NCBI GenBank assembly: GCA_951804945.1
Contig: OX638153.1
Span: forward strand, 20,770,001 to 20,834,000
DNA: 64,000 bases
From: Podarcis cretensis
Lineage: Eukaryota
Reading direction: 5' to 3'
Positions 10,769 to 62,050 of this stretch are shown piece after piece; within the stretch, counting starts at the first letter, position 1; each line of letters starts with the position of its first letter. Both the position numbers and the translations under genes were made by a program. The notes below the pieces were generated by a model. The model was not told where the DNA came from. It did not search any database and saw nothing but the letters and a program-made list of their open reading frames with translations.

Positions 10769-11111
10769 CAGTGGTGCCTCGCAAGACGAAATTAATCCAT
10801 TCCGCAAGTCTCTTCGTCTAGCGGTTTCTTCGTCTTGCGAAGCAAGCCCATTGACGGCTTAGCGGATTAGCGCTATTAGCGGCTTAGCGGCTTTTAGCGG
10901 TTTAGCGGCTTAGCGGATCAGCTGATAAGCGGCTTAGCGGCTTAGAAAGGGGGGGGGAGGGAAAAAAACCCGCAGGAACTCGCAAGACATTTTCGTCTTG
11001 CGAAGCAAGCCCATAGGGAAATTCGTTTTGCGAAGCGCCTCCAAAACGGAAAACCCTTTCGTCTAGCGGGTTTTCCGTTTTGCGAGGCGTTCGTCTTGCG
11101 GGGCACCACTG
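10769..11111. mobile_element. Tc1/mariner (Tigger-like) MITE
   Basis: TA|cagtggtgcctcgcaagacgaa...ttcgtcttgcggggcaccactg|TA; CpG-rich. Confidence 0.9.
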
Positions 11112-12304
11112 TACTCGATTCTGACCAAACTAAGCCTACTGATGTATATTTTGCTCTAGGCGGCTTAGTTTGGTCAGAATTGAGTATGCACTTTCAGAGT
11201 TGGTGCTAAATGCATTGCTTCTAGTAAATGAGCCACCATAGCCACTGGCATTTGCCCTGGGCCACTGGAACAGAATGAGGTAATAAATAAATAAACTATC
11301 ACATAAAAATGAAGAATAACATCAATAGTGGAAATACTCTTCAGACCCATATGCTACCTTAATTTGCACCAAATAACTTTATGGAATCTAGTTTATGAAA
11401 TGATCACAGACACAGAGTCACAGGTTACCAATCTTAAAAGTCCTGTTATAAGCTATGTGGAAAAAGCATCCAAATTAAAAATGCTCACTTAATGCCTAAG
11501 CAAAACAGATTTCTGTTTAAATGGTAATCTGGTCCATATACATGAAAGGACAGAGGGTGAAGGCTCAGTTCCAGGAACATTAAGCTCAATGTGGTTGCTA
11601 GTGTCATAACCTTAAAAATCCTTCTCTGCACAACAGGGAATCAATGTTGGAGGCATTTGGGGGAGCTTTTGCCAGTGAAACACTGTCTTTTTGTGCATCT
11701 CATTTGTCTCCCTAGGCTATATTTAGATGTTAGGGGATGGTACTTTCATAGAGGCATGTATGCTGTTTGCTTTTGTTTCACTGTTGGTTTATACAGTCAT
11801 CACTGTTCTGTGACTGTCAGGCTTGATAGGTTCCCGAAACAGAAAGGCAATTGTCTGAGATGAATGGTTGAATTCTAAAACAAGTCTCCCTTCCCCTTTG
11901 GTTTCCTCAAGCTTATAAAACGGTGAAATATTTTTACCCAAGAGCATTTACTTTTCATTTCTGGCAACACTGATGGCAGGAGCGCAGATAGTTTTCACCC
12001 TAATTGCCACCTATCATGTGCATATACTGGCTTCATAGTTTTATAAAAGGCACTTGCACCTGGGAACTTCAGGGTTAGGAACTAGTCCAATAAATTTCCA
12101 TGGATTATGTGTGATCAGGCCTCAGAACCTTCTTCAGTGCAGAAGGAGTGTGTCACTTCAGCCACTGTGTTCGGCAAGCAGGGGAAAAAGACCATTTGGG
12201 TTGGCCAGGTCTGGTATATATTATTGCTCTGCCAAAACTTATCCTCTGTGGTTTTTTCAACCATTATCCATCAGTTAATAAGAAAAGAAAGTGAAGGTTG
12301 TGTC

Positions 12305-12921
12305 TAGGCCTGGGTAATATATTAATATGAGGAGTACGAGGAGCAGACTGTGATGTCAGCTTCACTCAGCAGTGTATCACTGGTGAAACTGCCACCACTC
12401 CTGAGTCCCTCTGCTAGCGACTTTCTCCAGCGAGTGTTGTTAGCAGAGGGACTCAGGAGTGGTGACGGCTTCACCAGCGATATATCATGGAGTGAAATCG
12501 CCATCCCACTCTGCCCTCATACTGCACAGACGGATAAAAGGGCTGCATCTTCATCTTTTAACTGCTCAGCTGAGGAGTGTTCAGTTACCGCTCCCCTCAA
12601 CTGAGCCGTTAAAGGCTCCCCCAGCAAGCAGGGAGAGCTCTGGCCATGGCTCTGCTGGGGATTGGGAGCCCTCTTGTGCCCCAGCTAAGCATACAAACAA
12701 GCTGCCTTGTCCCAGACGGCTAGGGGCTGGGGTGAAGCCACCTCAGCTCCCATGATGAGAGCTGTGGCGATTTCACCAGGCGAACTGTGGCGATTTCACC
12801 AGGCGCCTGGCAGGCTGGCGGCAATGCAGCTTGTTTATTCAACAGTGTGGTATATCGGCAGGCCACGATGTTTGGCTGGTGATATACCGTGATGCTGAAA
12901 AGCTTATATCGCCCAGCCCCA
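12305..12921. mobile_element. probable hAT-like non-autonomous element with internal hairpin
   Basis: Imperfect TIR taggcctgggtaatat / atatcgcccagcccca; repeated GATAT/CGAT motifs; no clean TSD. Confidence 0.55.
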
Positions 12922-14293: not shown

Positions 14294-14645
14294 GGGGACG
14301 CGGGTGGCGCTGTGGGTTAAACCACAGAGCCTAGGGCTTGCCGATCAGAAAGTCGCGGTTCGAATCCCTGTGACGGCGTGAGCTCCCGTTGCTCAGTCCC
14401 TGCTCCTGCCAACTTAGCAGTCCGAAAGCACATCAAAGTGCAAGTAGATAAATAGGTACCGTTCCAGCGGGAAGGTAAACGGTGTTTACGTGCGCTGTTC
14501 TGGTACGCCGGAAGCGGCTTAGTCATGCTGGCCACATGACCCGGAAGCTGTACGCCAGCTCCCTTGGCCAATAAAGCAAGATGAGCACCGCAACCCCAGA
14601 ATCGGTCACGACTGGACCTAATGGTCAGGGGTCCCTTTACCTTTT
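14294..14645 (+). mobile_element. Sauria SINE
   Basis: tRNA-like head (ggtggcgctgtgg...ggttcgaatccc), body caagtagataaataggtacc, tail ccctttaccttt; flanking tatcag(ggga) duplication. Confidence 0.92.
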
Positions 14646-16187: not shown

Positions 16188-16229
16188 GTAAGTGAGAGTC
16201 ACACGTTATACAAGTGGGGACCATTTTAG

Positions 16230-16578
16230 TAAAGGTAAAGGGACCCCTGACCATTAGGTCCAGTCATGACCAACTCTGGGATTGCATGCTCATCTCGCTC
16301 TATAGGCTGAGGGAGCTGGCGTTTGTCCGCAGACAGCTACCGGGTCATGTGGGCAGCATGACTAAGCCGCTTCTGGCGAACCAGAGCAGCACATGGAAAC
16401 GCCGTTTACCTTCCCGCCGGAGCGGTACCTATTTATCTACTTGCACTTTGACGTGCTTTCGAACTGCTAGGTTGGCAGGAGCAGGGACTGAACAACATGA
16501 GCTCACCCCATCGCGGGGATTCGAACCGTCAACCTTCTGATCGGCAAGCCCTAGGCTCTGTGGTTCAACCCACAGCGC
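16230..16578 (-). mobile_element. Sauria SINE
   Basis: Reverse complement of the 14294 family; 15-bp TSD tggggacca(t/c)tttag. Confidence 0.92.
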
Positions 16579-20669: not shown

Positions 20670-20775
20670 TCATAGAATTGTAGAGTTGGAAGGGAGCACC
20701 AGGGTCATCTAGTCCAATCCCCTGCAATGCAGGAATCCTTTGCCTAATGTGGGCTCGAACCCATGACCTTGAGTC
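20670..20775 (-). mobile_element. tRNA-derived SINE with CR1-like tail, inside a hAT-like remnant
   Basis: catagaattgtagagttggaaggg...ccctgcaatgcagg...ctcgaaccc; same tail as 48633 and 52603 copies. Confidence 0.6.
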
Positions 20776-23768: not shown

Positions 23769-24199
23769 TATATTACATTTCACCATTGTGGGGAATACTG
23801 TGGCCAAGTGATCTGTGTGCCTTATCTGTTTGCTGCCCATGTGCTGACTGTTCAGGGACAACTTCAAGGCACCCCCTTCTCCTTTCTTAGGGTTATCTTT
23901 TAATTGGACATAAGCAGGGCAGCTCTTTGAATAGAGGTTTGAGCCACTGATTTAAGGGGAATAGCTGTGTCTCCCTTTCTCTGGATTGTGTTTTGTGACT
24001 AGGATTGTTAATCCTAGTTATTTGAGAACTAAAATAAAGCTTTTCCTTTTTTAAGTTAAATGTGCAATTGCAGCGTGCAGTTCAGCGAAGTTGCAGTAGA
24101 ACATTAGGTTGTATCCATCATTAGTCATATTTAGAGTAGACCCACTGAAATTAATGCAAATGACTAACTTGGATCTATTCTGAGTAAAACTTATTTGTA

Positions 24200-24425
24200 C
24201 AGTGGTACCTCGGGTTAAGTACTTAATTCGTTCCGGAGGTCCGTTCTGAACCTGAAACTGTTCTTAACCTGAAGCACCACTTTAGCTAATGGGGCCTCTT
24301 GCTGCTGCCGTGCCGACGGAGCACGATTTCTGTTCTCATCCTGAAGCAAAGTTCTTAACCTGAAGCACTATTTCTGGGTTAGCGGAGTCTGTAACCTGAA
24401 GCGTATGTAACCTGAGGTACCACTG
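24200..24425. mobile_element. Tc1/mariner MITE
   Basis: TA|cagtggtacctcgggtt...aacctgaggtaccactg|TA; same family (opposite orientation) at 41885 and 51870. Confidence 0.9.
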
Positions 24426-24583
24426 TATACAACCCCATAGATTTTGCAGTGTGAAACCGAATTCTAGAAAGCAATCAGCTTCATCAGATATGTAGATTTA
24501 GTTTCATCAGTGCACAACTGATATGCAGTATGGAGGCTGGAGTAAACTTCAGTGTAAGCCCATTATCCTAATGCTTCCAGTAA

Positions 24584-24745
<162 letters not shown>

Positions 24746-25848
24746 TAAGTAGCATCAAGCTGCCAGCATTGCTAATCAAAGAGATTCCATTAGTTGATTA
24801 TACCAATAAAATATTATGATCAGCTGCTCTAATTTAGGTCTTTTCCAAACAGAGGGTCTTGAAGATGTAGCTTGAGTGAGTTTAGAAAAACAAAGAGGAG
24901 GTGTCACACCTTGCCATCACAATGAATTGTGAAGCAATGAACTCAGACATAAAACTGACATATAAATAGACCTAAGATATGAGCTGGAGCTAGGTGAAAA
25001 ATCTATTCACTGATGCATTTGGGGGAGGCAGGATAATGTACCCATCAGACAATTCGAAACAGAAGTTGAGCATACCCAAAAACTCTTGCCTCAGATCAAA
25101 ACACCCATGGCAGGATAGGCTGTTCATACGCAACCATCATTTTTCCTTGGGGAGCCAATTATACAAGGGTGTAATTCTATGGTTAAGACATGACTGAGTC
25201 ACTCTAATGGTACACCAGCCACATAGGAGCTGCTTGTGGAAAAGGCAGCACCCGTGCCACTATAGAGCATTTCAAGGACACCAATGACTGCTTTTAGGGC
25301 TGCGAGTAAGTTTGTTTCTTCATTCGCTTACACAGTGGCTTAGTTTTTGGCTCAGACAACTTGCAGGCTGAAAGGCATCTTACAAAGGATTTATTTTTTT
25401 TTAGCCACCACCAAAAACATTGGATCCAAAAGCAATTTAACTATAAATGGGTTGATTGTTACGGTATCTTATCTTCCTGTCTGTTCTAGACAGCCATCTC
25501 TCTGTACAGGATCCTGCTTCTCCCTCAGTCCCGGGGAAAGGCAGTAGGCAGCTTTGCGTGGAGTCTTCACTTTTTTAAAACAAAAAACAATGAAGATCAC
25601 ACAATGATAAAATTGAATTCTGCAGCCTGTATAAATTAGATGTCCCAATAGCACCCTGCCTCTGCCTGCTTGCCACTTCCTTGTTGATCACTACGTGATC
25701 TGAGTAGAAGCAACTTGGTTTATACAAGTTGGCCAAGGGTTTTGTGTAGAGGAGGAGGATAAGAAACCATTTTGAGCCAGAGAGTCACATTCCCTTGTGT
25801 GGCTAACCTTCTGAGCGCTGGGCAACGTCACAGTAGTGGAAACTCACC

Positions 25849-26671
25849 TGAAATTCTTCCTCCCACACACAAATCTACACAAATACAGCAATGCCACTCC
25901 CGACATCCAGAGGGGGCGGGTTGCGGGCTCACGCCCCATTCACACCCTCGCGGGGCTGGCTGCAGCCCCGCGGGACCAAGGGAATCCCAGGATCAATAGT
26001 ATTCATTATTCACCACGCCAGCCAATCGGCTGGCGGTGGGGGCGGGACTAGTAAGGGGCATTTAAGGTCGGGGCAGCCCATACTCGCCCCTTTCTTTTCC
26101 TTTCAGCAGCTGCGGTTTCCCTCCCTCCCGCCCTTTAGGTTCTCATCTGGACTTTGCTATGGGCTTCGGCTGGTCGCCGCAAGGGGCCTGGTAGGAGTTT
26201 TTCCATTTGGCTAATCGGCTATATTTTGGAAGCCACTTGGTTTTTTCACCTACCTCGTAGCAAAACGTCACAACACCTTGGTTTTGGCGGTTAGGCATTG
26301 GCAGGGGTATTGTTATGCAAATGAGATGGGGGGGAGGAACGCCATCACCTCCCCCAAATGCTGAAGGGTAGTTCGTTAAAGGACTCCGGGGGGCGTTGCC
26401 TCATCCGAAACCTATGGAGGCTAGGGCCTAAAGCGCGCTCCCGAGCGGTAACCCCTTGGGGAGCACCTAGGGATGTGCATCTCGGGGGCTCCCCCTGTTG
26501 GTGCTTAACCCTTCCCGGTTATACCGGTTAATCTGATAGGGCCAATGCCTAAAGCCAATACCGCTCTTACCTGTAATCAATAAAGTTGTGGCCATTTTTC
26601 GCCCATTAACCTAAATTCGGTGTCCTGTGTCTTTATTCCATTCTGTGGGAGGGGGCGGGAATAGCCACGCA
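25849..26671 (+). mobile_element. solo LTR-like element (possibly Ngaro/DIRS class)
   Basis: CpG-rich 823-bp block with TG...CA ends; CCAAT, GC box, TTTAA, AATAAA plus GT-rich element; no TSD; class assignment is inference. Confidence 0.65.
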
Positions 26672-27084
26672 ATTGGGTATTGGAGGGTTTTTCAAGCTTA
26701 ATTGCTTAGCGAGGGTATGATCTTAATGGAGAGCACAGTCAGTAGGGAGTGAAGAGTTAATATTTCTCTCCATTGCTGTGGTCTCCATAAAGATACCGTC
26801 CCCCTGCAGGGCAGTTAAACTTTTTCAAAACACTTCCATTGTCACCATTGGTAACTTCTTTAAAAAACCAACCTAACTCCTGGATTGAGGTCAGATAAGG
26901 AGGGGAGACCCCACAGGTTGCATTCAGCCCATGGGGTGGAGGTTTCCCCTCCTTGGTGTAGACACTTTGATTACTCTGGCGCTGTTGCCACTGCTAAACG
27001 TTTGGGTCCATTTGTGCATGTGAAGCATCTCAACAAAGTATTTGTATTAATCAATATAACATTCCCTTATGTGTCTTCCTGAAG

Positions 27085-27184
27085 GTACAATCTGATGCTT
27101 CGCTGCTGGAAACAAGAACCAGATAAGAGGCCGACATTTGCTGAGATCAGCAAAGAATTAGAGAAAATGATGGTAAAGAGTAGG
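27085..27184 (+). CDS. RET: RET exon 18
   Basis: gaag|[33 protein letters not shown]|gtaagt; 100 bp. Confidence 0.97.
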
Positions 27185-30961: not shown

Positions 30962-31141
<180 letters not shown>

Positions 31142-32966: not shown

Positions 32967-33124
32967 GCATGTCATATCCGAACTGGCCTGAGGAGAGCCC
33001 CGTTCCACTCACAAGATGCGATGGCCCTAAGTCTGTGTTTTCAAGATATGCAAATGATAGTGTATATGCTAACTGGATGGTTTCACCCTCAGCGGCAAAA
33101 TTTATGGACAAGTTTGATAGTTAA
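32967..33124 (+). CDS. RET: RET exon 20, RET51-specific tail (Y1090, Y1096)
   Basis: tttag|[55 protein letters not shown]. Confidence 0.96.
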
Positions 33125-35472: not shown

Positions 35473-35830
35473 TGCGTGGTGCTGTGGTCTAAACCACTGA
35501 GCCTCTTGGGCTTGCTGATCGGAAGGTCGGGGGTTCGAATCCCTGCAACAGGGTGCGCTCCTGTTGCTCGGTCCCTGCTCCTGCCAACCTAGCAGTTCGA
35601 AAGCACGTCAAAGTGCAAATAGATAAATAGGTACCACTCCGGTGGGAAGGTAGACGGCATTTCCGTGCACTGCTCTGGTTTTGCCAGAAGTGGCTTAGTC
35701 ATGCTGGCCACATGACCCGGAAAAACTGTCTGCGGACAAACGTTGGCTCCCTCGGCCAGTAAAGCGAGATGAGCACCGCAACCCCAGAGTCGTTCATGAC
35801 TGGACTTAACTGTCAGGGGTCCTTTACATT
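35473..35830 (+). mobile_element. Sauria SINE
   Basis: Near full-length match to the 14294 copy. Confidence 0.9.
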
Positions 35831-35934
35831 TTCCTTTTAATGCTCACCTTTTTTGGCCAAATTACGTTGTGAAAATTAAGGTGCACATTAGATTTGAGTA
35901 AATACAGTATATTCCCTGGGAATAGTCACAACTA

Positions 35935-38169: not shown

Positions 38170-39960
38170 CTCTATTATTATTATTATTTATTGAATTTAT
38201 ATACTGCCCTATACCCAGAGGTTTCAGGGCGGTTCCCAGAACAAAATCAAAATATAAAACCACAAAAAATATAATCAAAACAACCCAATAACCCCCCCCC
38301 CCACACACACACATTTTAAAAGGGCATAGGATGTCAGTCAAATCAACCAAAGGCCTGGTTAAAAATGAATGTTTTTCCTTGGCTCTTAAGGTAAAGGTAC
38401 TCCTGCCCGTACGGGCCAATCGTGTCCGACTCTAGGGTTGTGCGCCCATCTCACTTAAGAGGCCAGGGGCCACTGCTGTCCAGAGACACTTCCGGGTCAC
38501 ATGGCCAGCGTGACAAAGCTGCTCTGGCGAGCCAGCACCAGCGCAGCACACGGAAACGCCGTTTACCTTCCCGCTATAAAGCGGTACCTATTTATCTACT
38601 TGCACTTAGGTGTGCTTTCGAACTGCTAGGTGGGCAGGAGCTGGGACCGAAAGACGGGAGCTCACCCCGCCGTGGGGATTCGAACCGCCGACCATACGAT
38701 CGGCAAGTCCTAGACACTGAGGTTTTACCCACAGCGCCACCCGCGTGGCTCTTAAAGGTGTATTATGAAGGCGCCAGGCGAACTTCCCTGGGAAGAGCAT
38801 CCCACAGATGGGGAGCCACTGCCGAGAAGGCCCGTTCTTGTGTTGCCACCCTCTGGACCTCTCATGGAGAAGGCACACAAAGAAGGGCCTCAGAAGTTGA
38901 TCTCAGGGTCTGGGTAGGTTCATAGGGAAAGAGGCGATCCTTGAAGCATTGTGGTCCTGAGCTGTTTAAAGCTTTATAGGTAAAAACCAGCACTTTGAAT
39001 TGGGCCCAGAAACTAATTGGTAGCCAGTGCAGTTGGACCAGGATCCGTGTAATATGCTCAAACTGTCTTGCTCCGGTGAGCAACCTGGCTGCTGAATTCT
39101 ATACTAGCTGAAGTTTCTGAACAGTCTTCAGAGGCAGCCCTACATATAACACATTGCAGTCATCTAACCTTGAGGTTACCAGAGCATAGACAACAGTAGT
39201 TAGGCTATCCCGAACTACTAGGGGCATAGTTTGGGCCACAAGCCGAAGCTGATGGAAGGCACTCTGGGCCACTTGAGGCCACCTGAGCCTCAAGCGACAC
39301 CAAAGGATCCAGGAGTACCCCCAAGCTATGAACCTGCTCCTTCAGAGGAAGTGTAACCCCATCAATATCAGGCGACCTCCCACCCATCCGCTCTAGGGAA
39401 CCACCCACTAACAGTGCCTCAAGTCCTATCTGGATTGAGATTCAGTTTGTTGGGTCTCATCCAGTCCATTACTGAGGCAAGACACTGGACCAGCACTTTC
39501 ACTGCCTCACCTGAAGATGTAAAGGAGAAATAGAGCTGAATATCATCAGCATACTACTGACAACATACTCCGAACCTCCGGATAACCACACCCCCAGTGG
39601 TTTCATGTAGATGTTAAAAAATGTGGGGGTTAGGATTGATCCCTGTGGAACCCCACATTGAAGGTTCCATGGGGCTGAAAAGCATTACCCAAGCAATACC
39701 CTTTGCAAGCAATAACCATCCAAGTAGGACTGGAACCACCGCAAAGTGGTGCCACCCACCCTTAGTTCAGACAGTCGCTCCAGAAGGATACCATGGTCGA
39801 TGGTAACAAAAGCCGCTGAGAGATTGAGAAGAATTAGCAGGGACATGTTTCCCTTGTCTCTCTCTCTTGACAGAGGTCATCATACAGAACAATCAAAGCA
39901 GTTTCTGTGCCCAAACCGAGCCTAAACCCCAACTGAAATGGGCCAAGATAGTATTGTTTT
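38170..39960 (-). mobile_element. L2-clade LINE fragment (degenerate reverse transcriptase and C-terminus)
   Basis: Minus-strand peptides YADDIQL (~39545), ALVTSRLDDCNVLYVGLP, HITRILVQLHWLP...FKVLVFTYKALN; (TAA)n tail at the left end. Confidence 0.9.
38389..38746 (-). mobile_element. Sauria SINE nested in the L2 fragment
   Basis: Family match; TSD tggctcttaa on both sides. Confidence 0.92.
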
Positions 39961-41884
39961 CCTCTTTGAAAACCAACCAACAAGAAGCGAGTTTGGGCAT
40001 TGAAGCTTCAGCCCTGAGAATTTATTTGGGAGTAAGTTCTATTAAACTGGGCAATTGGGACAGATTAGGGATTCTGCTGGTTTACCCACCCATCTGTCAA
40101 GCAGTCTCTGAAGCAGTGTTGAGGACTCCCATACTGCTGGTTCTGGGAGACTTCAACTTCCATGCTGAGGCAGCTGGAAGTGGGGTGGCAGAAAAAGGTC
40201 CTCCTTTCCTTCCACTCTGCAGTTTTAATCTGAAATCTTAAGCACAGTACTAGAACACCAGAATGCAGAAACAACTCCCATCATTCTTAGCTAGCAGGAC
40301 CAGTGGTCAGGGATGATGGGAACTGTAGCAAAAACAGCTGGAGAGATCAAAGTTTGTGAAACTCTGGTCTACACTCTACAGCTTGAAAGGAAAACGAAAT
40401 CCTAAACTCTGACTGTGTATGGACATGTGTAAGAGAGAAAGAGATCCCTGAGATGGTATACCTAACCATCAGCAATATAACTATAAATAAAAAACCAGGC
40501 AAGCCCCCCCCCTTTACATGTGAGACTAGTCTCTTCAAAAGAGGATGAGGAAGTAAATTGAGCCCATGGATGTAGCACTACTGAATACAAGGCAGGGAGA
40601 CACCTCCCGTTCCATACAAATATTCCCAGAACATCGTGGAATTGAAATCCAATGATAAGATGAAAGCAGAATAATCAAAGGAGCATAACAACACGAAATA
40701 GTGAAAGTATGGCAAATAAAGAGGTGAATGTGTCAGACAAGCCTCCCTAATGAGAGTGTGGTGCAAACAGGGCTGCACCGCTGACAAATGACTTCTTCCC
40801 AAGGTACTACCAGCCTGAAAATGTTTTATTCAGAATAATGGCTCCTTTAAGGGAAGTAGCACTACTGTATTATGTAATGGGGAAGCTAAAAGCATCTTCC
40901 GTCAGTTGGATGGCACAACTGAACAGGCCTTCTCTCCAGTGACACTTGCCTCATCTTAGATGGCAGTGGCACATATAGGAGTGCACTAAAAACTATATGC
41001 ATGCACAGGTAGGTTGATGTGGAGGAGGAAATCCCCCAGGTATCTTCATCCCAATCTAGACAGCTGTAAAGCACACACAGTGAAGCAGAATAGCTTTATA
41101 GAGGAAGCATGTTGCAACAGATGACTTACAAACTAGCCCCGTCTGTCTGAGTGCTTATCTGCTCCCTTGTACTCAGCTTTCATATTTGTATATAAAACTT
41201 CACAACTGTCCACTACACCTTCATCATAAGGAAGCAGAACTTGTAAAAAAGTGTCCATGGACATCCAGCTACTCAGGGAAATGGGGAGTGCAAAGCAATG
41301 CCAAGCCTCATACTACAGGGAAAGGGTGGAGGGAACTAGCACCTCCACCTGGCTTATTTGATCTGTGCAGGTGGTGGTGGGGGGGGCCCTTCTGATCCTG
41401 AAGGGTGCAAGCCTTGTGCAGCCTATTTCATTATAATTAGACACGACTTACTAGTCTTCAACAATATTTGTATTTAAAAAAAATTAAACATGCAGCATCA
41501 AATTCCAGATGGGGATTTATGACATAACAGCTCAGGAATTGTAAAGTGTATTGAAACAGATTTCATGAACATTTTCAAAATTATTACTTGCACATTTTGG
41601 CTTTGCTGATCATGACTAATTTGCAACAACAAAAGCAGCATCACATGGGGATCATTGTGGGAGTTATTCTACCATTAAGGTCTGAGCCATGGAATTTTGT
41701 AAAAGGCCCCTCTGGCAAATCCAGCTAATGACTTTCTGACAGCTCCCAAAAAGCTGAGCACAATCTATGCTGCCACGGAAACACTTCTTTACTAAAAGCG
41801 CTGCTTTTTAAGAGTTGAATCATCTTCTTCAGTTATTTTTCAGTTTACTACCAGGTATCTGTTCCTACCTCCACTTTGCATTTA

Positions 41885-42124
41885 CAGTGGTACCTCGGGT
41901 TACAGACGCTTCAGGTTACAGACTCCGCTAACCCAGAAATAAGAACCCAGAAATAAGAACTCGGGATAAGAACTTTGCTTCAGGATGAGAACAGAAATCA
42001 TGCAGCAGCAGCGCAGCGACAGCAAGAGGCTCCATTAGCTAAAGTGGTACCTCAGGTTAAGAACAGTTTCAGGTTAAGAACGGACCTCCAGAGTGAATTA
42101 AGTTCTTAACCTGAGGCACCACTG
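41885..42124. mobile_element. Tc1/mariner MITE
   Basis: TA|cagtggtacctcgggtt...aacctgaggcaccactg|TA. Confidence 0.9.
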
Positions 42125-42948
42125 TACTGTTCTCCCATTTGATATATTTTAGGATGCAAAAAGCCTTTATTTTAGTAATGTATCACCATCTCCTTTCCAC
42201 TCTATCATAAAAACAAAAATGCCAACAGACTGAACTAGTGCACCTCTATTCTGAACACATCTTTTTCATAGTTCCACTAACAATTCAAAGTGAAGGAATC
42301 ATTTCCATTTTTTAATTAAAAACAGCTGATCTTAATTGGTAGGGCTCAATACTGGAAGCGGTTAAATTTGCAAATAGGAGATCAAGGTGGGGTTCAATGA
42401 AGACAACATGGGTGTAAATCACAAAATGTGGCATTATTCTTACACGGGAAACTTTGCATTTCTTGGTGTAACAGCATGAGGCAGATCCCACTATCACAGA
42501 AACATTTAGCAGCAGCTGCTGCAACATGATTAGAAATGTGCTTCATGGTATGTAAGTGGATATAAAGACAAGTGTTATATTGCCATCCTTTGATACTACA
42601 GACTGCTTCTGTGAGAGGGAGAGGGTCTGTAGAGATCTGTGATAGCAAGTGTCTCCCGAAACACTGCATTCTCCTTCAGCCCTGTCTGGGGGTAAATAAT
42701 TGTTACCATTCTGCATTACAAAACAAAATAATATCACTGGTACCAAACTGCATGGGAAACAGTCCTACTAGAAAAGCTAACCAACACATTGAAACGAACA
42801 CAGGGACAAACAAGGATGCCCTCACCCTAGTATGGCTCCCCTTTATTACATATACAGCCCCACAAGACAACAACATAACCCCCACCCCAAGAGCATACAA
42901 ACTGATATGGCTAATCTGACCCAACACACACACACACGCTGGGCCCTT

Positions 42949-43860: not shown

Positions 43861-44372
43861 TGTCCAGTAGCACGCGAAAGCTTATACCCAGAACAAACTT
43901 AGTTGGTCTCTAAGGTGCTAAAAAGGTAAAGGTAAAGGTACCCCTGCCCGTACGGGCCAGTCTTGACAGACTCTGGGGTTGTGCGCCCATCTCACTTAAG
44001 AGGCCAGGGGCCAGCGCTGTCCGGAGACACTTCCGGGTCACATGGCCAGCGTGACAAAGCTGCATCTGGCGATCCAGCGCAGCACACGGAAACGCCGTTT
44101 ACCTTCCCGCCAGTAAGCGGTCCCTATTTATCTACTTGCACCCGGGGGTGCTTTTGAACTGCTAGGTTGGCAGACGCTGGGACCGAGCAGCGGGAGCGCA
44201 CCCCGCCGCGGGCATTCGAACCGCCGACCTTCCGATCGGCAAGCCCTAGGCGCTGAGGCTTTTACCCACAGCGCCACCTGCGTCCCTTCTCTAAGGTGCT
44301 ACTGGACAATTATTTATTTATTTTATTTATTTTGGCTGCGTCAGACCAACACTGCTACCTACCTGATTCTAG
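43861..44372. mobile_element. Penelope-like terminal remnant interrupted by a Sauria SINE
   Basis: Inverted ends tgtccagtagcac / gtgctactggaca; cgaaagcttata...ttggtctctaaggtgcta motif; family assignment from memory. Confidence 0.55.
43924..44286 (-). mobile_element. Sauria SINE
   Basis: Full length and CpG-rich; 14-bp TSD tctctaaggtgcta. Confidence 0.93.
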
Positions 44373-45644: not shown

Positions 45645-45780
45645 CAGGCATAGGCAAACTTGGCCCTCCAGATGTTTTGGGACTACAATTCCCATCATTC
45701 CCGACCACTGGTCTTGCTAGCTAGGGATCATAGGAGTTGTAGGCCAAAAACATCTGGAGGGTCGAGTTTGCCTATGCCTG
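45645..45780. mobile_element. hAT-type palindromic MITE
   Basis: TIR caggcataggcaaact; perfect 8-bp TSD gcctatgt. Confidence 0.9.
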
Positions 45781-48632: not shown

Positions 48633-48778
48633 TAGCCTGGATGGCTCAGTTGGTTAGAGCATGGTGCTCATATTGCCAAGGTTGCAGGTTCAATCCGTGT
48701 ACAGGGCAGCTGCATATTCCTGCATTGCAGGGGGTTGAACTAGATGACCCTCAGGGTCCCTTCCAATTTTATGATTCT
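48633..48778 (+). mobile_element. tRNA-derived SINE with CR1-like tail
   Basis: A box tggctcagttgg, B box ggttcaatcc, tail ggtcccttccaa...atgattct. Confidence 0.8.
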
Positions 48779-51824: not shown

Positions 51825-51869
51825 TATGTGCAGTGTGCATAGGAATTTGTTCATATTTTTTTCAAACTA

Positions 51870-52095
51870 CAGTGGTACCTCAGGTTACAGACGCTTCAGG
51901 TTACAGACTCCGCTAAACTAGAAATAGTACCTCAGGTTGAGAACTTTGCTTCAGGATGATAACAGAAATTGCACAGTGGCGGCCCGGCGGTGGCAGGAGG
52001 CCCCATTAGCTAAAGTGGTGCTTCAGGTTAAGAACAGTTTCAGGTTAAGAACGGACCTCCAGAACAAATTAAGTTCTTAACCCGAGATACCACTG
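51870..52095. mobile_element. Tc1/mariner MITE
   Basis: Same family as 24200 and 41885; TA TSD. Confidence 0.9.
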
Positions 52096-52602
52096 TATAG
52101 TCTGGCACCCAGCAATGTCTGAGGAACAGTGAACTGGCCCCCTGTTTAAAACGTTTGAGGACCCCTGTTCTACACCATATGAAGCACCATGTCACAACTT
52201 TCCTGTTTCTTTTAAAACATATTGGTGATCTCATTTGGTTAAGGAAAATATGTTCATGAAATCATCAGTACAACTGGCAGATGTCTACTCTTAGGGTGGG
52301 TTAAATATTTGTTCCCATCTGTCCTTGCTTTGGTTGGAGAAAAAATTACTGGAAAAAAGTTGCATAGAAAAATTGAAAGCTGGTCACTTGAAATCATGTG
52401 GGCGTGAAAACTGTTGCTTTGTAAAGAGAGCCAAAACCTTGGCTATCATTCTTTCTCGCATAAAGCCTCTGTTGCACTGATGGAATGGGAAGGAAAGTGC
52501 TTAGAGTGATCAGGTATTCGTGTTTGTCTTTTGATTATGGTTAAGGGACTGGATTGTGTGCTTCAAGCCTATGCATGTAAACTATCAGCACCTTTAAAGA
52601 CC

Positions 52603-52740
52603 ATAGAATCATAGAAATACAGAGTTGGAAGGGATCCCGAGGATCATCTAGTTCAACCCCCTGCAATGCAGGGATCTTGTTCTGGGTGGGCTTGAACCAC
52701 CGACTTCTGGTTTACAGCCACACACAGTGACTCATTGTGT
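52603..52740 (-). mobile_element. tRNA-derived SINE with CR1-like tail
   Basis: catagaatcatagaaatacagagttggaaggg...cttgaacc. Confidence 0.65.
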
Positions 52741-54458
52741 CACAGAGTTAAAGGGGAGCTCTGGTAACTAAGGTAATCAAATTTCTCATTGGTTAGGTGT
52801 CCTGTTTTTTACACACACACACACACCGCTATTTTTAATTTCTTTCTTGAGACAGAATAATTTGCCCTGATTGCTGTCCAGCATTTGAAGTAGCCGGGCG
52901 TCAGTCACATTTTGCTTCGAGGAACTGAACCATGTTCAGCCATGGTTCACATCAATGCATGTGTGTCCCAAACCATGATTAACAACATCTTTCATGTAAG
53001 AGGAACAGAAATTTGTCATTCTGTGCCCTATTTCTGACCCCTCAACCTTGGTTAAAAGCTAAAGAAAGTTGTTCCTATGCCAGCTCCAAGTATTCATTTG
53101 CAACTAGTAGTCAGTAGTTACCTATGCTGCCCATAAAAGTGAGAAAATTCAATTTACTGACCTGTTGAATAAAATATACTATTTCTGGAGATATATGTGT
53201 GGGATTGCACATTGCTGCTTAATAGAAACTGCATGTACTGTCTATTACTGTATGTTAATTTCACAAAGAATCTTCATGTAATTATGGCAAATATTTTAAC
53301 TAATATTAACTAATATTATTAGTTTTTCTAATTGCTCTTGGGTAATCCAGTGCTGACAATAGAAACACTCCTACTTTTCTTAGTTTAGTTATCATGGATA
53401 TATTCAAAGAAAAGCCAAGAAAGTTTGCTGCAACAAAGATTAAGGCTGCTTTATGGCTGCGAATCTAAAAAGACAACTAGGAGAACTCAAGTTTTGTTTT
53501 CTAATGAAGTCCAGAAATATGTCATATTGTAGGACTGTTGAAGTCTCTGCTGCAACACTCTGTGCAATGCTAGACACTTGCAATGTGAATGAGTTAGATA
53601 CAATGTTGGAACTATTTGACTAGCTGAATGTTGAGTAATTCAACAGTTCTTGACTGTGGAAATTTTGTTGCACTGACGTGTCCTAATCTCAGTGTAGCTT
53701 TTAACTGCACTGCTGTAAAAGAACCTGGAAGTGCTGTTATTTTCTTTGCTACTTTAAAGTCTTCTAATTGCATTTTGTATTTCTGTCCGGACCCTGAGGG
53801 AGTTAGGTGTTCTGGAGATGACTGCTCCAGGGTAATGTCGCAGCACAGATGTCAAATATCATGCTATTGTAGTATATAAAGTAATGACTTTATGTGCAGA
53901 TAATGATGATGGTGAAGTATTCTTGTGTTTGGTGCTATTTTTAAGAAATTAATTTAATGTAACTGAGTGGTAGGAGTAGCCATTTGTGCAAGGGCCTAAT
54001 GAGACAGCTGGTGCTCAGTGTCTGCAGAAATGTCCTTCGCTCGTACATGTCTTGCTTTGGAAGCAATATGTACATAATACTGAAAAAGTCTTTTCAGTTT
54101 ATATGTTGAAAAACTGAGGTCTACAGTCTGACCTCAAATCTTTCATAACTAAACCGATTTCCATCTTATCCACACAGGCTTGGGGCAGCTGAGCCTTAAC
54201 TCTATAAAAAATAATAATAGTGACACAGGTAGTGAAAAAAGTCTACTGTCCCATCTGTGATGGGCATGAGGTTGAGAGAGGATTTTAAAACCTTCTCTGT
54301 TGCAATTTGATTCTGCTCCTTGTCTCACAGGTTTCCCCCTCTTAATGAAGAAGTCAGGGTGACTGCAATTGAAGAGGAGAAAAAAATGTTCAGTTTCCTT
54401 GTAGTTGCAGCTTATTGCCCCACATGCTACTGCCCTGGATGAGAAGAGTGGCTTAGGG

Positions 54459-54759: not shown

Positions 54760-55794
54760 CTACTAACACACACCCGACCATAACACGCACATAGTTTTTA
54801 GAGGAGGAAAACAAGAAAAAAAAATCTAAACGAAACAGTGGATGTATGATTTTTGTGGTTCATGCTGTGGCCACAGACATGTGATCTGACGGTGAGTTTG
54901 GGGTAGCCCAATGCAAAAATCCTGAGGATCCATGTGGATCCATGCTTTGTAACCACATTTTTGCACCACTGTGGCCCCAGGCAACAGTGGGTGCGTGCTA
55001 TTTTTGGTGCAAGCTGTAGCCATGGACATGCTATGTGATCTGATGGTGAATTTGGGGTGACCCAGTGCAAAAATCCTGAGGATCCATGTGGATCCGTGCT
55101 TTGTAACCACGTTTTAGGTGGAGAGGGAAGGAAAAGCACTCAAGGGACAAGGAGCACGCGTGGGGTGTGTGGAGAAGGGTCCTGCTAATAATGCAGAAGA
55201 GGGGTATAAGAGGAGAAGGAACACGCGTGGGGTGTGTGGAGAAGGATGCTGCTAATAAGGCAGAAGAGGAGTATAAGGGGAGAAGGAACACGCGTGTTGT
55301 GTGTGGAGAGGGATGCTGCTAATAATTCAGGCGAGGGGTATAAGAGGAGAAGGCTCCTGTCCTCTCCCGCTTTGCTCCTTTGAAGCAAGCAGGCTCTGCT
55401 TCTCTCCCACCTCCCCGGCTTAGCGCTTAGCGATCTGAAAAACCTCGCTGCTATTACGCGAGCTGAGTGGAGAGAGGGACATGGTTGCTTTAAAGGAGCC
55501 AACCGGACAGGAGCTGCTTACACTCGTGTAAGCGGCTCCTGTCCTCTCCTGCATTGCTACTCTGAAGCAAGCAGGCTCTGCTTCTCTCCCTCCTCCCCAC
55601 TCAGCGGCTCTTCTCCCGCTTTGCTGTTTCAAAGCGAGCCACGGAGAAGGGAAGGGAGGGGAACCATGGATCCTCTGCTCACGACTGCAGCAGATCCCCC
55701 CGCCATCCTTAGGCATTTGCTCCATAACACGCACAGACATTTCCCCTTACTTTCTAGGAGGAAAAAAGTGAGTGTTATGGTGCAAAAAATACGG
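54760..55794. mobile_element. Tc1/mariner-derived non-autonomous element with internal tandem repeats
   Basis: Both ends match the reverse complement of the 35935 MITE; right TIR aaaaaatacgg intact, left end eroded. Confidence 0.75.
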
Positions 55795-61392: not shown

Positions 61393-62050
61393 ATGCCTAG
61401 AAGAGGCATAATATTTCAAGCCAGAACTCGGTGGCTGTTGGTCGGTCTTGCCTTGCTGTTGAGTTTGTTGCTGTTTATGTACCTCCTTGAATGTGCTCCA
61501 CAAACGGATGGCAATGGATCACTTCCTGGCATTGTAGGGGAGAGTTTTGGCAAGGAACACTACCAAGCCCTCCTGCAGGAGCAAGAAGAACATTACCAAA
61601 CCAGAGCTATGAGCCTCAAGCGCCAAATTGCTCAGTTAAAGCAGGAGCTTCAGGAAATGAGTGACAAGTTAAAATTGTTACAGGAGAAGAAAACCCCAAG
61701 AGTCAACAGCATGGGCTATCAAGGCACCAAAGAACAAGCACCCAATGATCTCCTGGAATACCTGCATTCTCAAATAGACAAAGCTGAAGTGAGCATGGGG
61801 GCCAAGCTGCCTAGTGAATATGGAGTCGTTCCTTTTGAAAGCTTTACTTCCATGAAGGTGTTCCAGCTGGAAATGGGGCTAACGCGACACCCAGAGGAGA
61901 AACCTGTGAGGAAAGATAAGCGAGATGAATTGGTGGAAGTAATTGAGGCTGGCCTCGAGGTAATCAATAATCCAGATGAAGAAGATGGTCAAGATGAAGA
62001 TGACGGAATAGGGGAGAGACAGCTTTACAATGAAAACGATTTTATAGAAG
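61393..62050 (+). CDS. CSGALNACT2: chondroitin sulfate N-acetylgalactosaminyltransferase 2, first coding exon (gene continues beyond window)
   Basis: MPRRGIIFQARTRWLLVGLALLLSLLLFMYLLECAPQTDGN... type II membrane anchor, coiled coil, KVFQLEMGLTRHPEEKPVRKDKRDEL...NDFIEG|gt; lies next to RET as in human. Confidence 0.95.

Follow-up and report, generated by a model that had tools for sequence, protein, structure and literature searches.

A probable LTR-like retroelement end-repeat lying in sense in RET intron 17 of Podarcis cretensis, with promoter-like, SOX-OCT and poly(A) motifs

The window, meaning the whole stretch of 64,000 nucleotides of Podarcis cretensis DNA that was analysed, contains an 823-bp block within intron 17 of RET. 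The block is supported as a discrete LTR-like retroelement end-repeat lying in sense with the gene and carrying predicted promoter, SOX-OCT and poly(A) motifs. Its anatomy is best explained as a solo A-B repeat of a Ngaro-type element that inserted in sense into the intron, would carry its own promoter and terminator kit and is probably silent; the probability of this reading is roughly 0.5. In the ranking of element classes the Ngaro-type solo A-B repeat comes first and an ERV or Gypsy LTR, either with a lost target-site duplication (TSD) or in a truncated provirus, second, and the block is filed as a member of neither family. An intronic solo repeat is as such ordinary, since vertebrate genomes contain hundreds of remnants per family in which the promoter and the sites for pluripotency factors are intact (PMC3362752; this and the other papers are cited for the excerpts available). 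The block would thus be an ordinary kind of element, and the use of its motifs by RET a candidate function only.

Both the host gene and the lineage were observed directly. The exons were placed by translation and splice sites, and the location in RET intron 17, given already in the earlier note, was borne out by the matches to RET kinase structures, the Pfam kinase coverage and the exon coordinates. The exon numbers 17-20 follow what we take to be the numbering of human RET. The features at the host locus are the following:

24607-24744, + strand: RET exon 17, kinase C-lobe, Pfam kinase model positions 188-232 of 258
25849-26671, + strand: the block, an LTR-like solo retroelement end-repeat, best fit solo A-B repeat, with TG...CA ends and no TSD
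27085-27184, + strand: RET exon 18, Pfam kinase model positions 234-258, acceptor AAG with 13/17 pyrimidines
30962-31109, + strand: RET exon 19, by translation and splice sites
from 32967, + strand: RET exon 20, by translation and splice sites

The best PDB matches of the exon 18 translation were to the RET kinase (10 of the 11 sequences listed). The start of exon 18 lies 414 bp beyond the right end of the block, and ATGs in frame occur within this exon at 27095, 27167 and 27170, in agreement with the earlier claim of an exon about 400 bp away with in-frame start codons. Also the docking tyrosines expected further downstream were found, the equivalents of Y1015, Y1062 and Y1096 (presumed RET numbering) lying at 30965, 31106 and 33065. 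Two RET C-termini are encoded, one by reading through exon 19 (30962-31140) and the other by splicing to exon 20 (32967-33124), which we take to be the RET9-like and RET51-like forms, respectively. The RET promoter lies outside the window, more than 25 kb from the block. RET is an essential gene, central to the neural crest, kidney and germline. The gene 3' of RET is CSGALNACT2, with values of 95% for Pogona, 92% for Varanus and at most 83% for mammals among the best 120 of 458 matches, which makes the host a lizard-like squamate; its first coding exon was placed at about 61393-62050.

The block begins with TG and ends with CA, has a GC content of 0.549 and includes 40 CpG dinucleotides. The earlier description of an 823-bp CpG-rich block held for the size and for the observed/expected ratio (0.64), but the CpG-rich core covers only 25892-26527 and the density is ordinary for local repeats: 4.9 CpG per 100 bp against 2.9-8.1 in the eight dispersed-repeat copies of the window, in which the ratio was 0.53-0.85. 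The segment 47000-48200, with a density of 9.5 per 100 bp, above that of the block, and a ratio of 0.88, is a true CpG island, probably the CSGALNACT2 promoter. Because the CpG content of the block is like that of nearby SINE copies, its CpG richness fits a repeat insertion and shows no open or unmethylated element. As proof of activity CpG richness was dropped, the block being within the range of the eight copies.

The motifs of the block and their order were directly observed:

25910-25920 and 26649-26659, + strand: 11-bp GC-box direct repeat, weak (E = 0.13)
26016-26035, unstranded: near-palindrome, 90% self-complementary, containing the CCAAT box (26022)
26036-26046, + strand: GC box, GGGCGG at 26040
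26061-26065, + strand: TATA-like TTTAA, a non-canonical box, TTTAA having 150 + strand occurrences in the window
26309-26322, + strand: SOX-POU composite motif, a 14-mer about 225 nt downstream of the inferred start
26579-26645, + strand: AATAAA at 26579, likely cleavage CA near 26605 (inferred) and GT/T-rich downstream element

The CCAAT, GC and TTTAA boxes, the 14-mer and the AATAAA all lie on the + strand at the places where the earlier note had put them. The GT-rich element that it had reported after the poly(A) signal is likewise present, as a GT/T-rich stretch about 40-65 nt 3' of the hexamer. An ordered CCAAT-GC-TATA-like...AATAAA layout arose in 3 of 20,000 dinucleotide shuffles of the block, a P value that is optimistic because the pattern was written after the block had been seen, and was matched by 2 of 316 window segments, both being the block itself. 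Three GC boxes in the block were unusual (P = 0.0016, 20,000 dinucleotide shuffles), and CCAAT (P = 0.33) and AATAAA (P = 0.12) taken singly were unremarkable in such shuffles; between RET exons 11 and 20 there are 20 sense AATAAA hexamers. The proposed match of the 14-mer to the SOX2-OCT4 composite consensus was confirmed at the level of the motif: it is near-consensus and zero-gap and occurs once in the 64 kb on both strands, and a degenerate SOX-OCT composite appeared in 3 of 20,000 dinucleotide shuffles (P = 0.0009 for a loose one). The predicted 521-nt internal RNA did not have an unusual structure (z = -1.07).

The ends and the absence of a TSD were also observed directly. The TG...CA ends were chosen in the earlier note, and they are supported by a 9-bp inverted match near both of them:

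25859-25867, unstranded: left arm, 10 nt in from the left end
26644-26652, unstranded: right arm, 19 nt in from the right end

Among 3,159 window segments of the same length, and likewise among about 4,600 random pairs within the block, 0.3-0.5% had an inverted match as good as this 9-bp one. Short inverted repeats at the termini are, together with TG...CA ends, the mark of integrase-type LTRs (PMC12440569); here the arms are inset rather than at the very termini. At the block ends no exact 4-mer, and no 5- or 6-mer with at most one mismatch, was found as a TSD within 4 bp of either end, and a wider scan of 181 x 161 candidate ends detected no TG...CA pair with a 5-8 bp duplication. The scan left one 4-mer at shifted ends other than TG/CA (about 1.2 expected) and one distant TG...CA pair with a 4-mer, at chance level. 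The alternative TG...CA pair 25837/26741 was rejected, as it is at chance level and cuts through a hairpin. In a crude control, flanking matches of 8-10 nt were found in four of eight SINE-like copies.

When the block was excised in silico, the rejoined 10-mer (25844-25848 plus 26672-26676) was found to recur at 26842-26851, which a clean insertion lacking a TSD would explain; this is a weak result, equalled by 29 of 600 random deletions. This recurrence, about 170 bp to the right, brackets the hairpin and possibly reflects a duplication from an older insertion.

26720-26794, unstranded: hairpin of 75 nt, 48 bp outside the right end, -35 kcal/mol, z = -5.6, none of 200 shuffles as stable

Of 2,557 window segments, 19 folded as well as the hairpin, only two of them with a GC content below 0.5. 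No Rfam family matched the hairpin at threshold; conceivable origins are a MITE in decay, a piece of leader or a stem of the miRNA kind.

In most LTR retrotransposons the ends are TG...CA and the TSDs 4-6 bp long (PMC12440569). Of the features of an integrase-type solo LTR, the TG...CA ends and the U3-R-U5 order are present and the 4-6 bp TSD is missing, and the implied R region of about 510 nt is long. Without a TSD the block departs from the solo LTR in a defining feature, and the absence points to integration by a tyrosine recombinase rather than to an integrase-made solo LTR. The LTR-like cassette of the earlier note therefore stands as a discrete sense end-repeat with a promoter-to-poly(A) layout, but not as a canonical solo LTR. 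Tyrosine-recombinase elements transpose without a TSD (PMC4157794). Among these, Ngaro elements have split direct repeats, the order in the parent being A1-[gag, RT/RH, YR]-B1-A2-B2 (PMC9210276, PMC8547959), and solo AB repeats of Ngaro are on record (PMC8547959). No parent of this structure was seen in the window. The block resembles the Ngaro solo A-B repeats (PMC8547959; DIRS-53_XT, PMC9210276; DIRS-32_ACar, PMC6681497) in being an isolated non-coding end-repeat with no TSD, and the group occurs in squamates, a Ngaro-like family, DIRS-32_ACar, being listed for Anolis (PMC6681497 supplement). The likeness is one of description and not of sequence, and the sizes differ: in Xenopus DIRS-53_XT, the only vertebrate Ngaro family with sizes given in the excerpts, A is 236 bp and B 152 bp (PMC9210276), altogether 388 bp against the 823 bp of the block. 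For vertebrate Ngaro repeats the excerpts describe neither the terminal dinucleotides nor any SOX-OCT motif.

Two other classes were ruled out by the TG/CA ends. DIRS1-like elements are marked by long inverted terminal repeats, TTT ends and an internal complementary region (PMC9210276), and the longest terminal inverted match of the block was 9 bp. The Troyka LTR retrotransposons have CG...CG termini and a 3-bp TSD (PMC12440569).

The second explanation, possible though tentative, is an integrase-type LTR (ERV, lokiretrovirus-like or Gypsy), either as a solo LTR with a lost TSD or as the 5' LTR of a truncated provirus; the hairpin at 26720-26794 would then be a leader scrap, and the promoter and terminator action would be unchanged. 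The TG...CA ends, the terminal inverted match, the U3-R-U5-like order, a TGG starting 2 nt past the right end (26671) and the strong hairpin 48 bp downstream all agree with such an origin. A TSD can be lost through later deletion. The absent TSD nevertheless counts against this explanation, as do the left flank, which has no polypurine tract, and the surroundings of the block, where open reading frames and Pfam revealed no coding remnant. Also, the flank that follows the TGG resembles no tRNA end known to us.

The nearest LTR parallel is the chicken ENS-1/Soprano element, which is alike in its similar size, non-canonical TATA, pluripotency-factor site and solo copies inside genes (PMC3362752, PMC13320278). 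The Soprano clones are 414-949 nt long, with the TATA-like box at roughly one third of the LTR length (PMC13320278). Soprano uses NANOG, GATA and ETS sites and works through NANOG, whereas the block has a SOX-OCT motif, and by eye no likeness was visible to the first 400 nt of 23 Soprano clones (PMC13320278). In chicken ENS-1, 227 of 1,143 solo LTRs keep intact activation sites, and sauropsid solo LTRs with pluripotency-factor sites number hundreds (PMC3362752). Further embryo-expressed ERVs are zebrafish BHIKHARI/crestin (PMC12067270, PMC9341512) and Xenopus 1a11/xretpos (PMC4585706); the zebrafish Bik-1 insertions have perfect TSDs (PMC12067270), unlike the block. Reptile lokiretroviruses are described as highly degraded (PMC7947760), which likewise speaks against an integrase-type LTR here.

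For the preferred Ngaro-type solo repeat, the following course of events is proposed. A retrotransposon would have inserted in sense into the squamate RET intron 17, integrated by a tyrosine recombinase so that no TSD was made, and recombination between its repeats would have removed the coding part and left a solitary end-repeat. Transcription by Pol II would begin near 26085-26107 under the CCAAT box, GC box and TATA-like box, the SOX-POU site would activate the element in pluripotent cells, the germline or neural progenitors, in which a new insertion can be inherited, and the AATAAA with the GT-rich element would bring the RNA to its end near 26605. If this copy yields any RNA, a non-coding one of about 500 nt that is confined to the element would be the default. 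Silencing, and removal with the intron during splicing, is the probable fate of the copy in most cells, with an essentially normal RET output. We infer the repeat status, family class, transcription, tissue, silencing and neutrality, of which the silence and neutrality of the block are assumptions. The ordered layout, the terminal 9-bp match, the dispersed-repeat-like CpG, the TSD absence and, weakly, the rejoined 10-mer argue for the solo-repeat reading; the lack of detected relatives, the TG...CA ends, the size mismatch, the TGG past the right end and the strong splice acceptors argue against a silent Ngaro-type solo.

These acceptors bear on a gene trap or cryptic exon, which is compatible with either origin and unlikely to be in real use. 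Crude scores were given to the splice sites of the block, with a donor matrix for the donors and the number of pyrimidines for the acceptors:

26088-26106, + strand: pyrimidine tract with AG, cryptic acceptors 26107/26110 (NAGNAG); may equally be an initiator region
26121-26138, + strand: second cryptic acceptor, exon start 26139, 16/17 pyrimidines
26159-26161, + strand: ATG flanked by G at -3 and +4; use of donor 26191 would bring it into frame with RET exons 18-20 (145 aa)
26191-26196, + strand: best + strand donor of the block, score 2.66

Exon 17 would splice to 26107, 26110 or 26139, with two predicted outcomes. If the transcript ended at the poly(A) signal of the element, 25-29 new residues would replace the end of the C-lobe and the whole tail, giving a membrane-bound RET that lacks the three docking tyrosines, a predicted ligand-binding decoy; with the stop in the last exon, no decay of this transcript is expected. 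If it spliced out at 26191, 27-28 residues would be inserted in frame into the C-lobe. Acceptor 26107 was the sole 17/17-pyrimidine YAG among 4,487 + strand AGs and 26139 one of ten with at least 16/17, so by pyrimidine count both exceed the real exon 18 acceptor (13/17, AAG). Through donor 26191 the cassettes 26107-26190 (84 nt) and 26110-26190 (81 nt) are stop-free and hold the frame to the RET C-terminus, while 26139-26190 shifts it; the in-frame cassette and the in-frame ATG at 26159 rest on one shared frame and are not independent results. The score of the donor was matched or beaten by 110 of 3,461 + strand GTs, and lies within the range of the true RET donors (-0.54 to 6.42, five of eight scoring at most 2.87).

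Strong acceptors with a middling donor make trapping or in-frame splicing of the 28-residue cassette better supported than an internal promoter, and termination of RET transcripts, through the strong cryptic acceptors that are absent from the earlier note, has the best anatomy of the three functional proposals of the earlier note as a prediction from splice sites. These acceptors, the in-frame cassette and the in-frame start within the RET kinase region would mean possible decoy or insert isoforms. A squamate precedent is the amel allele of corn snake OCA2, where an intronic LTR element supplying cryptic splice sites was exonised and the protein truncated; there the insertion is a 5.8-kb Copia-like element with demonstrated exonisation, here an 823-bp block with predicted sites (PMC4657000). 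Trapping is opposed by the lack of a strict YTNAY branch point upstream of 26107 or 26139 (the exon 18 acceptor has two), by the tract being perhaps a mere initiator region and by the crude scoring. Since RET is essential, a strong trap should moreover be purged by selection, so that low or no use is most likely. On the minus strand, strong antisense donors were seen at 25847 (8.08), 26253 (5.35) and 26570 (7.37); three of 3,225 minus-strand GTs reach 8.08. The donor at 25847 spans the left junction, and an antisense transcript arising at the promoter could make use of it.

No second copy of the block was found by self-BLAST in the 64-kb window. None of 18 protein candidates was confirmed for its 107-aa open reading frame, none of 379 longer proteins for a 120-aa frame and none of five exact protein look-ups of the block frames, and three block frames included no Pfam family. 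The 85-aa minus frame gave, against 1.84 billion representatives, one match to a 1,330-aa protein in 19 short stretches at 33% identity, which was judged from the table alone to be a low-complexity match and set aside. Also a protein-coding role was rejected, the frames being spurious, without a Pfam family or usable protein match. In prokaryotic genomes none of 449 and none of 600 candidate stretches held up, nothing matched among plasmids and phages, and Rfam gave nothing in the block at the gathering score; of two Rfam matches below threshold, both rejected, one was mir-2012 on the hairpin (23 against 90 bits) and the other a frameshift element. A 15-nt motif of the block occurred in none of the papers searched, and no motif match was found in the Soprano, lokiretrovirus, Xenopus and BHIKHARI supplements, a weak negative given their broken lines and the coverage of 12 of 17 Soprano files. 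In the literature on squamate Ngaro elements, no description of this family was found.

An improbable reading of these results is a host-born, single-copy regulatory island that is not a mobile element. It agrees with the single copy in the window, the failure to find relatives and the missing TSD, but the presence of matched termini, a promoter and a poly(A) signal together within 823 bp is the anatomy of a retroelement repeat, and the negative searches were blind to vertebrate non-coding DNA. With searches of protein and microbial data of this kind, the multi-copy status of the block is deduced from its anatomy and its family is unproven.

It is doubtful that the putative SOX-POU site was co-opted as an enhancer active in the embryo, the germline or neural progenitors, whether for RET or for its neighbour CSGALNACT2. 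The motif itself, near-consensus, zero-gap and unique in 64 kb, speaks for it, and parallels exist: transposable elements act as neural-crest enhancers in human cells via coordinator, TWIST1, AP2 and SOX9/10 motifs, OCT4-SOX2 being unmentioned in the excerpts (PMC12673149), and the Soprano LTR has enhancer activity in chicken germ cells (PMC13320278). The mouse ES-cell Oct4-Sox2 LTRs (ERVK, ERVL, MaLR) also hold a SOX-POU composite inside a retroelement repeat; their binding was measured, whereas the squamate block is known from a motif alone, lying downstream of the inferred start (10.1101/737981). In the same cells retrotransposons are the source of most composite motifs, and according to the authors strict spacing by itself does not show function, family-borne motifs thus being an unreliable sign of it (10.1101/737981). 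There is, furthermore, a single such motif, the block does not exceed the SINE copies in CpG content and the RET promoter is distant. The host being a squamate, mammalian spermatogonial and OCT4 biology carries over by analogy only.

It is very doubtful that a squamate tyrosine-recombinase family spreads the SOX-POU composite as solo A-B copies and that this copy was recruited by RET, as an enhancer or, in the embryo or germline, through a developmentally switched isoform, which would take the form of the kinase-truncated decoy ending near 26605, the 28-residue C-lobe insert or a kinase-less 145-aa docking tail from the ATG at 26159. If this was true, a repeat of such an element would have been co-opted by a receptor kinase; in the literature examined, receptor-kinase co-option of end-repeats is described for ERV LTRs, with no Ngaro-type case. 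The tyrosine-recombinase origin suggested by the missing TSD bears on whether such elements spread SOX-POU sites in reptiles, a question that the literature examined does not address.

The least probable reading, to be given very little weight, is the internal promoter of the earlier note, which named no donor. In concrete form it would start at about 26085 and splice from donor 26191 to exon 18 to give a kinase-less RET tail, either of 145 aa from the ATG at 26159 (11 element residues plus exons 18-20) or of 106-131 aa from the exon 18 ATGs: donor 26191 and the in-frame ATG with G at -3 and +4 would allow it, but 110 of 3,461 + strand GTs score as well as the donor, being in frame is a 1-in-3 event, and the intron to be removed contains the poly(A) signal of the element, past which the transcript would have to run. 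Sense solo LTRs do drive truncated ALK and ERBB4 (PMC5134097). ALK-ATI (LTR16B2, intron 19) and ERBB4 (MLT1C, MLT1H) are alike in that a solo repeat lies in sense in an intron of a receptor kinase, followed by in-frame starts; the ALK-ATI product keeps its kinase and those transcripts were detected, whereas the block sits within the region coding for the kinase C-lobe, is known from sequence and would give a product with neither kinase nor anchor (PMC5134097). With neither of these, the tyrosines of that product would be phosphorylated only in trans, as follows from established RTK biology. N-myristoylation of the 145-aa product was rejected, its N-terminus lacking the PROSITE myristoylation pattern.

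Elsewhere in the window, self-BLAST and structural scans detected several further repeats:

14295-14645, 16229-16578, 35476-35838, 38388-38760 and 43921-44298: CpG-rich repeat of about 350 bp, five copies, 75-87% alike (self-BLAST), presumably a Sauria-type SINE
24197-24427, 41883-42127 and 51868-52097: another repeat family, its copies about 230-245 bp long and 82-90% alike (self-BLAST)
48635-48708, + strand: tRNA-like sequence, Rfam 35.2 bits, tRNA-Met by ARAGORN
52681-52746, - strand: tRNA-like sequence, Rfam 34.1 bits
54459-54594, 45645-45780, 40271-40377, 12333-12523 and 11031-11186: palindromic MITE-like segments, the first three mutually related
55145-55353 and 10855-10945: tandem arrays, with 3.1 copies of a 67-bp unit and 11 copies of an 8-bp unit, respectively

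The two tRNA-like sequences adjoin a short repeat that is present also at 20670 and 29770, and are therefore probably SINE heads.
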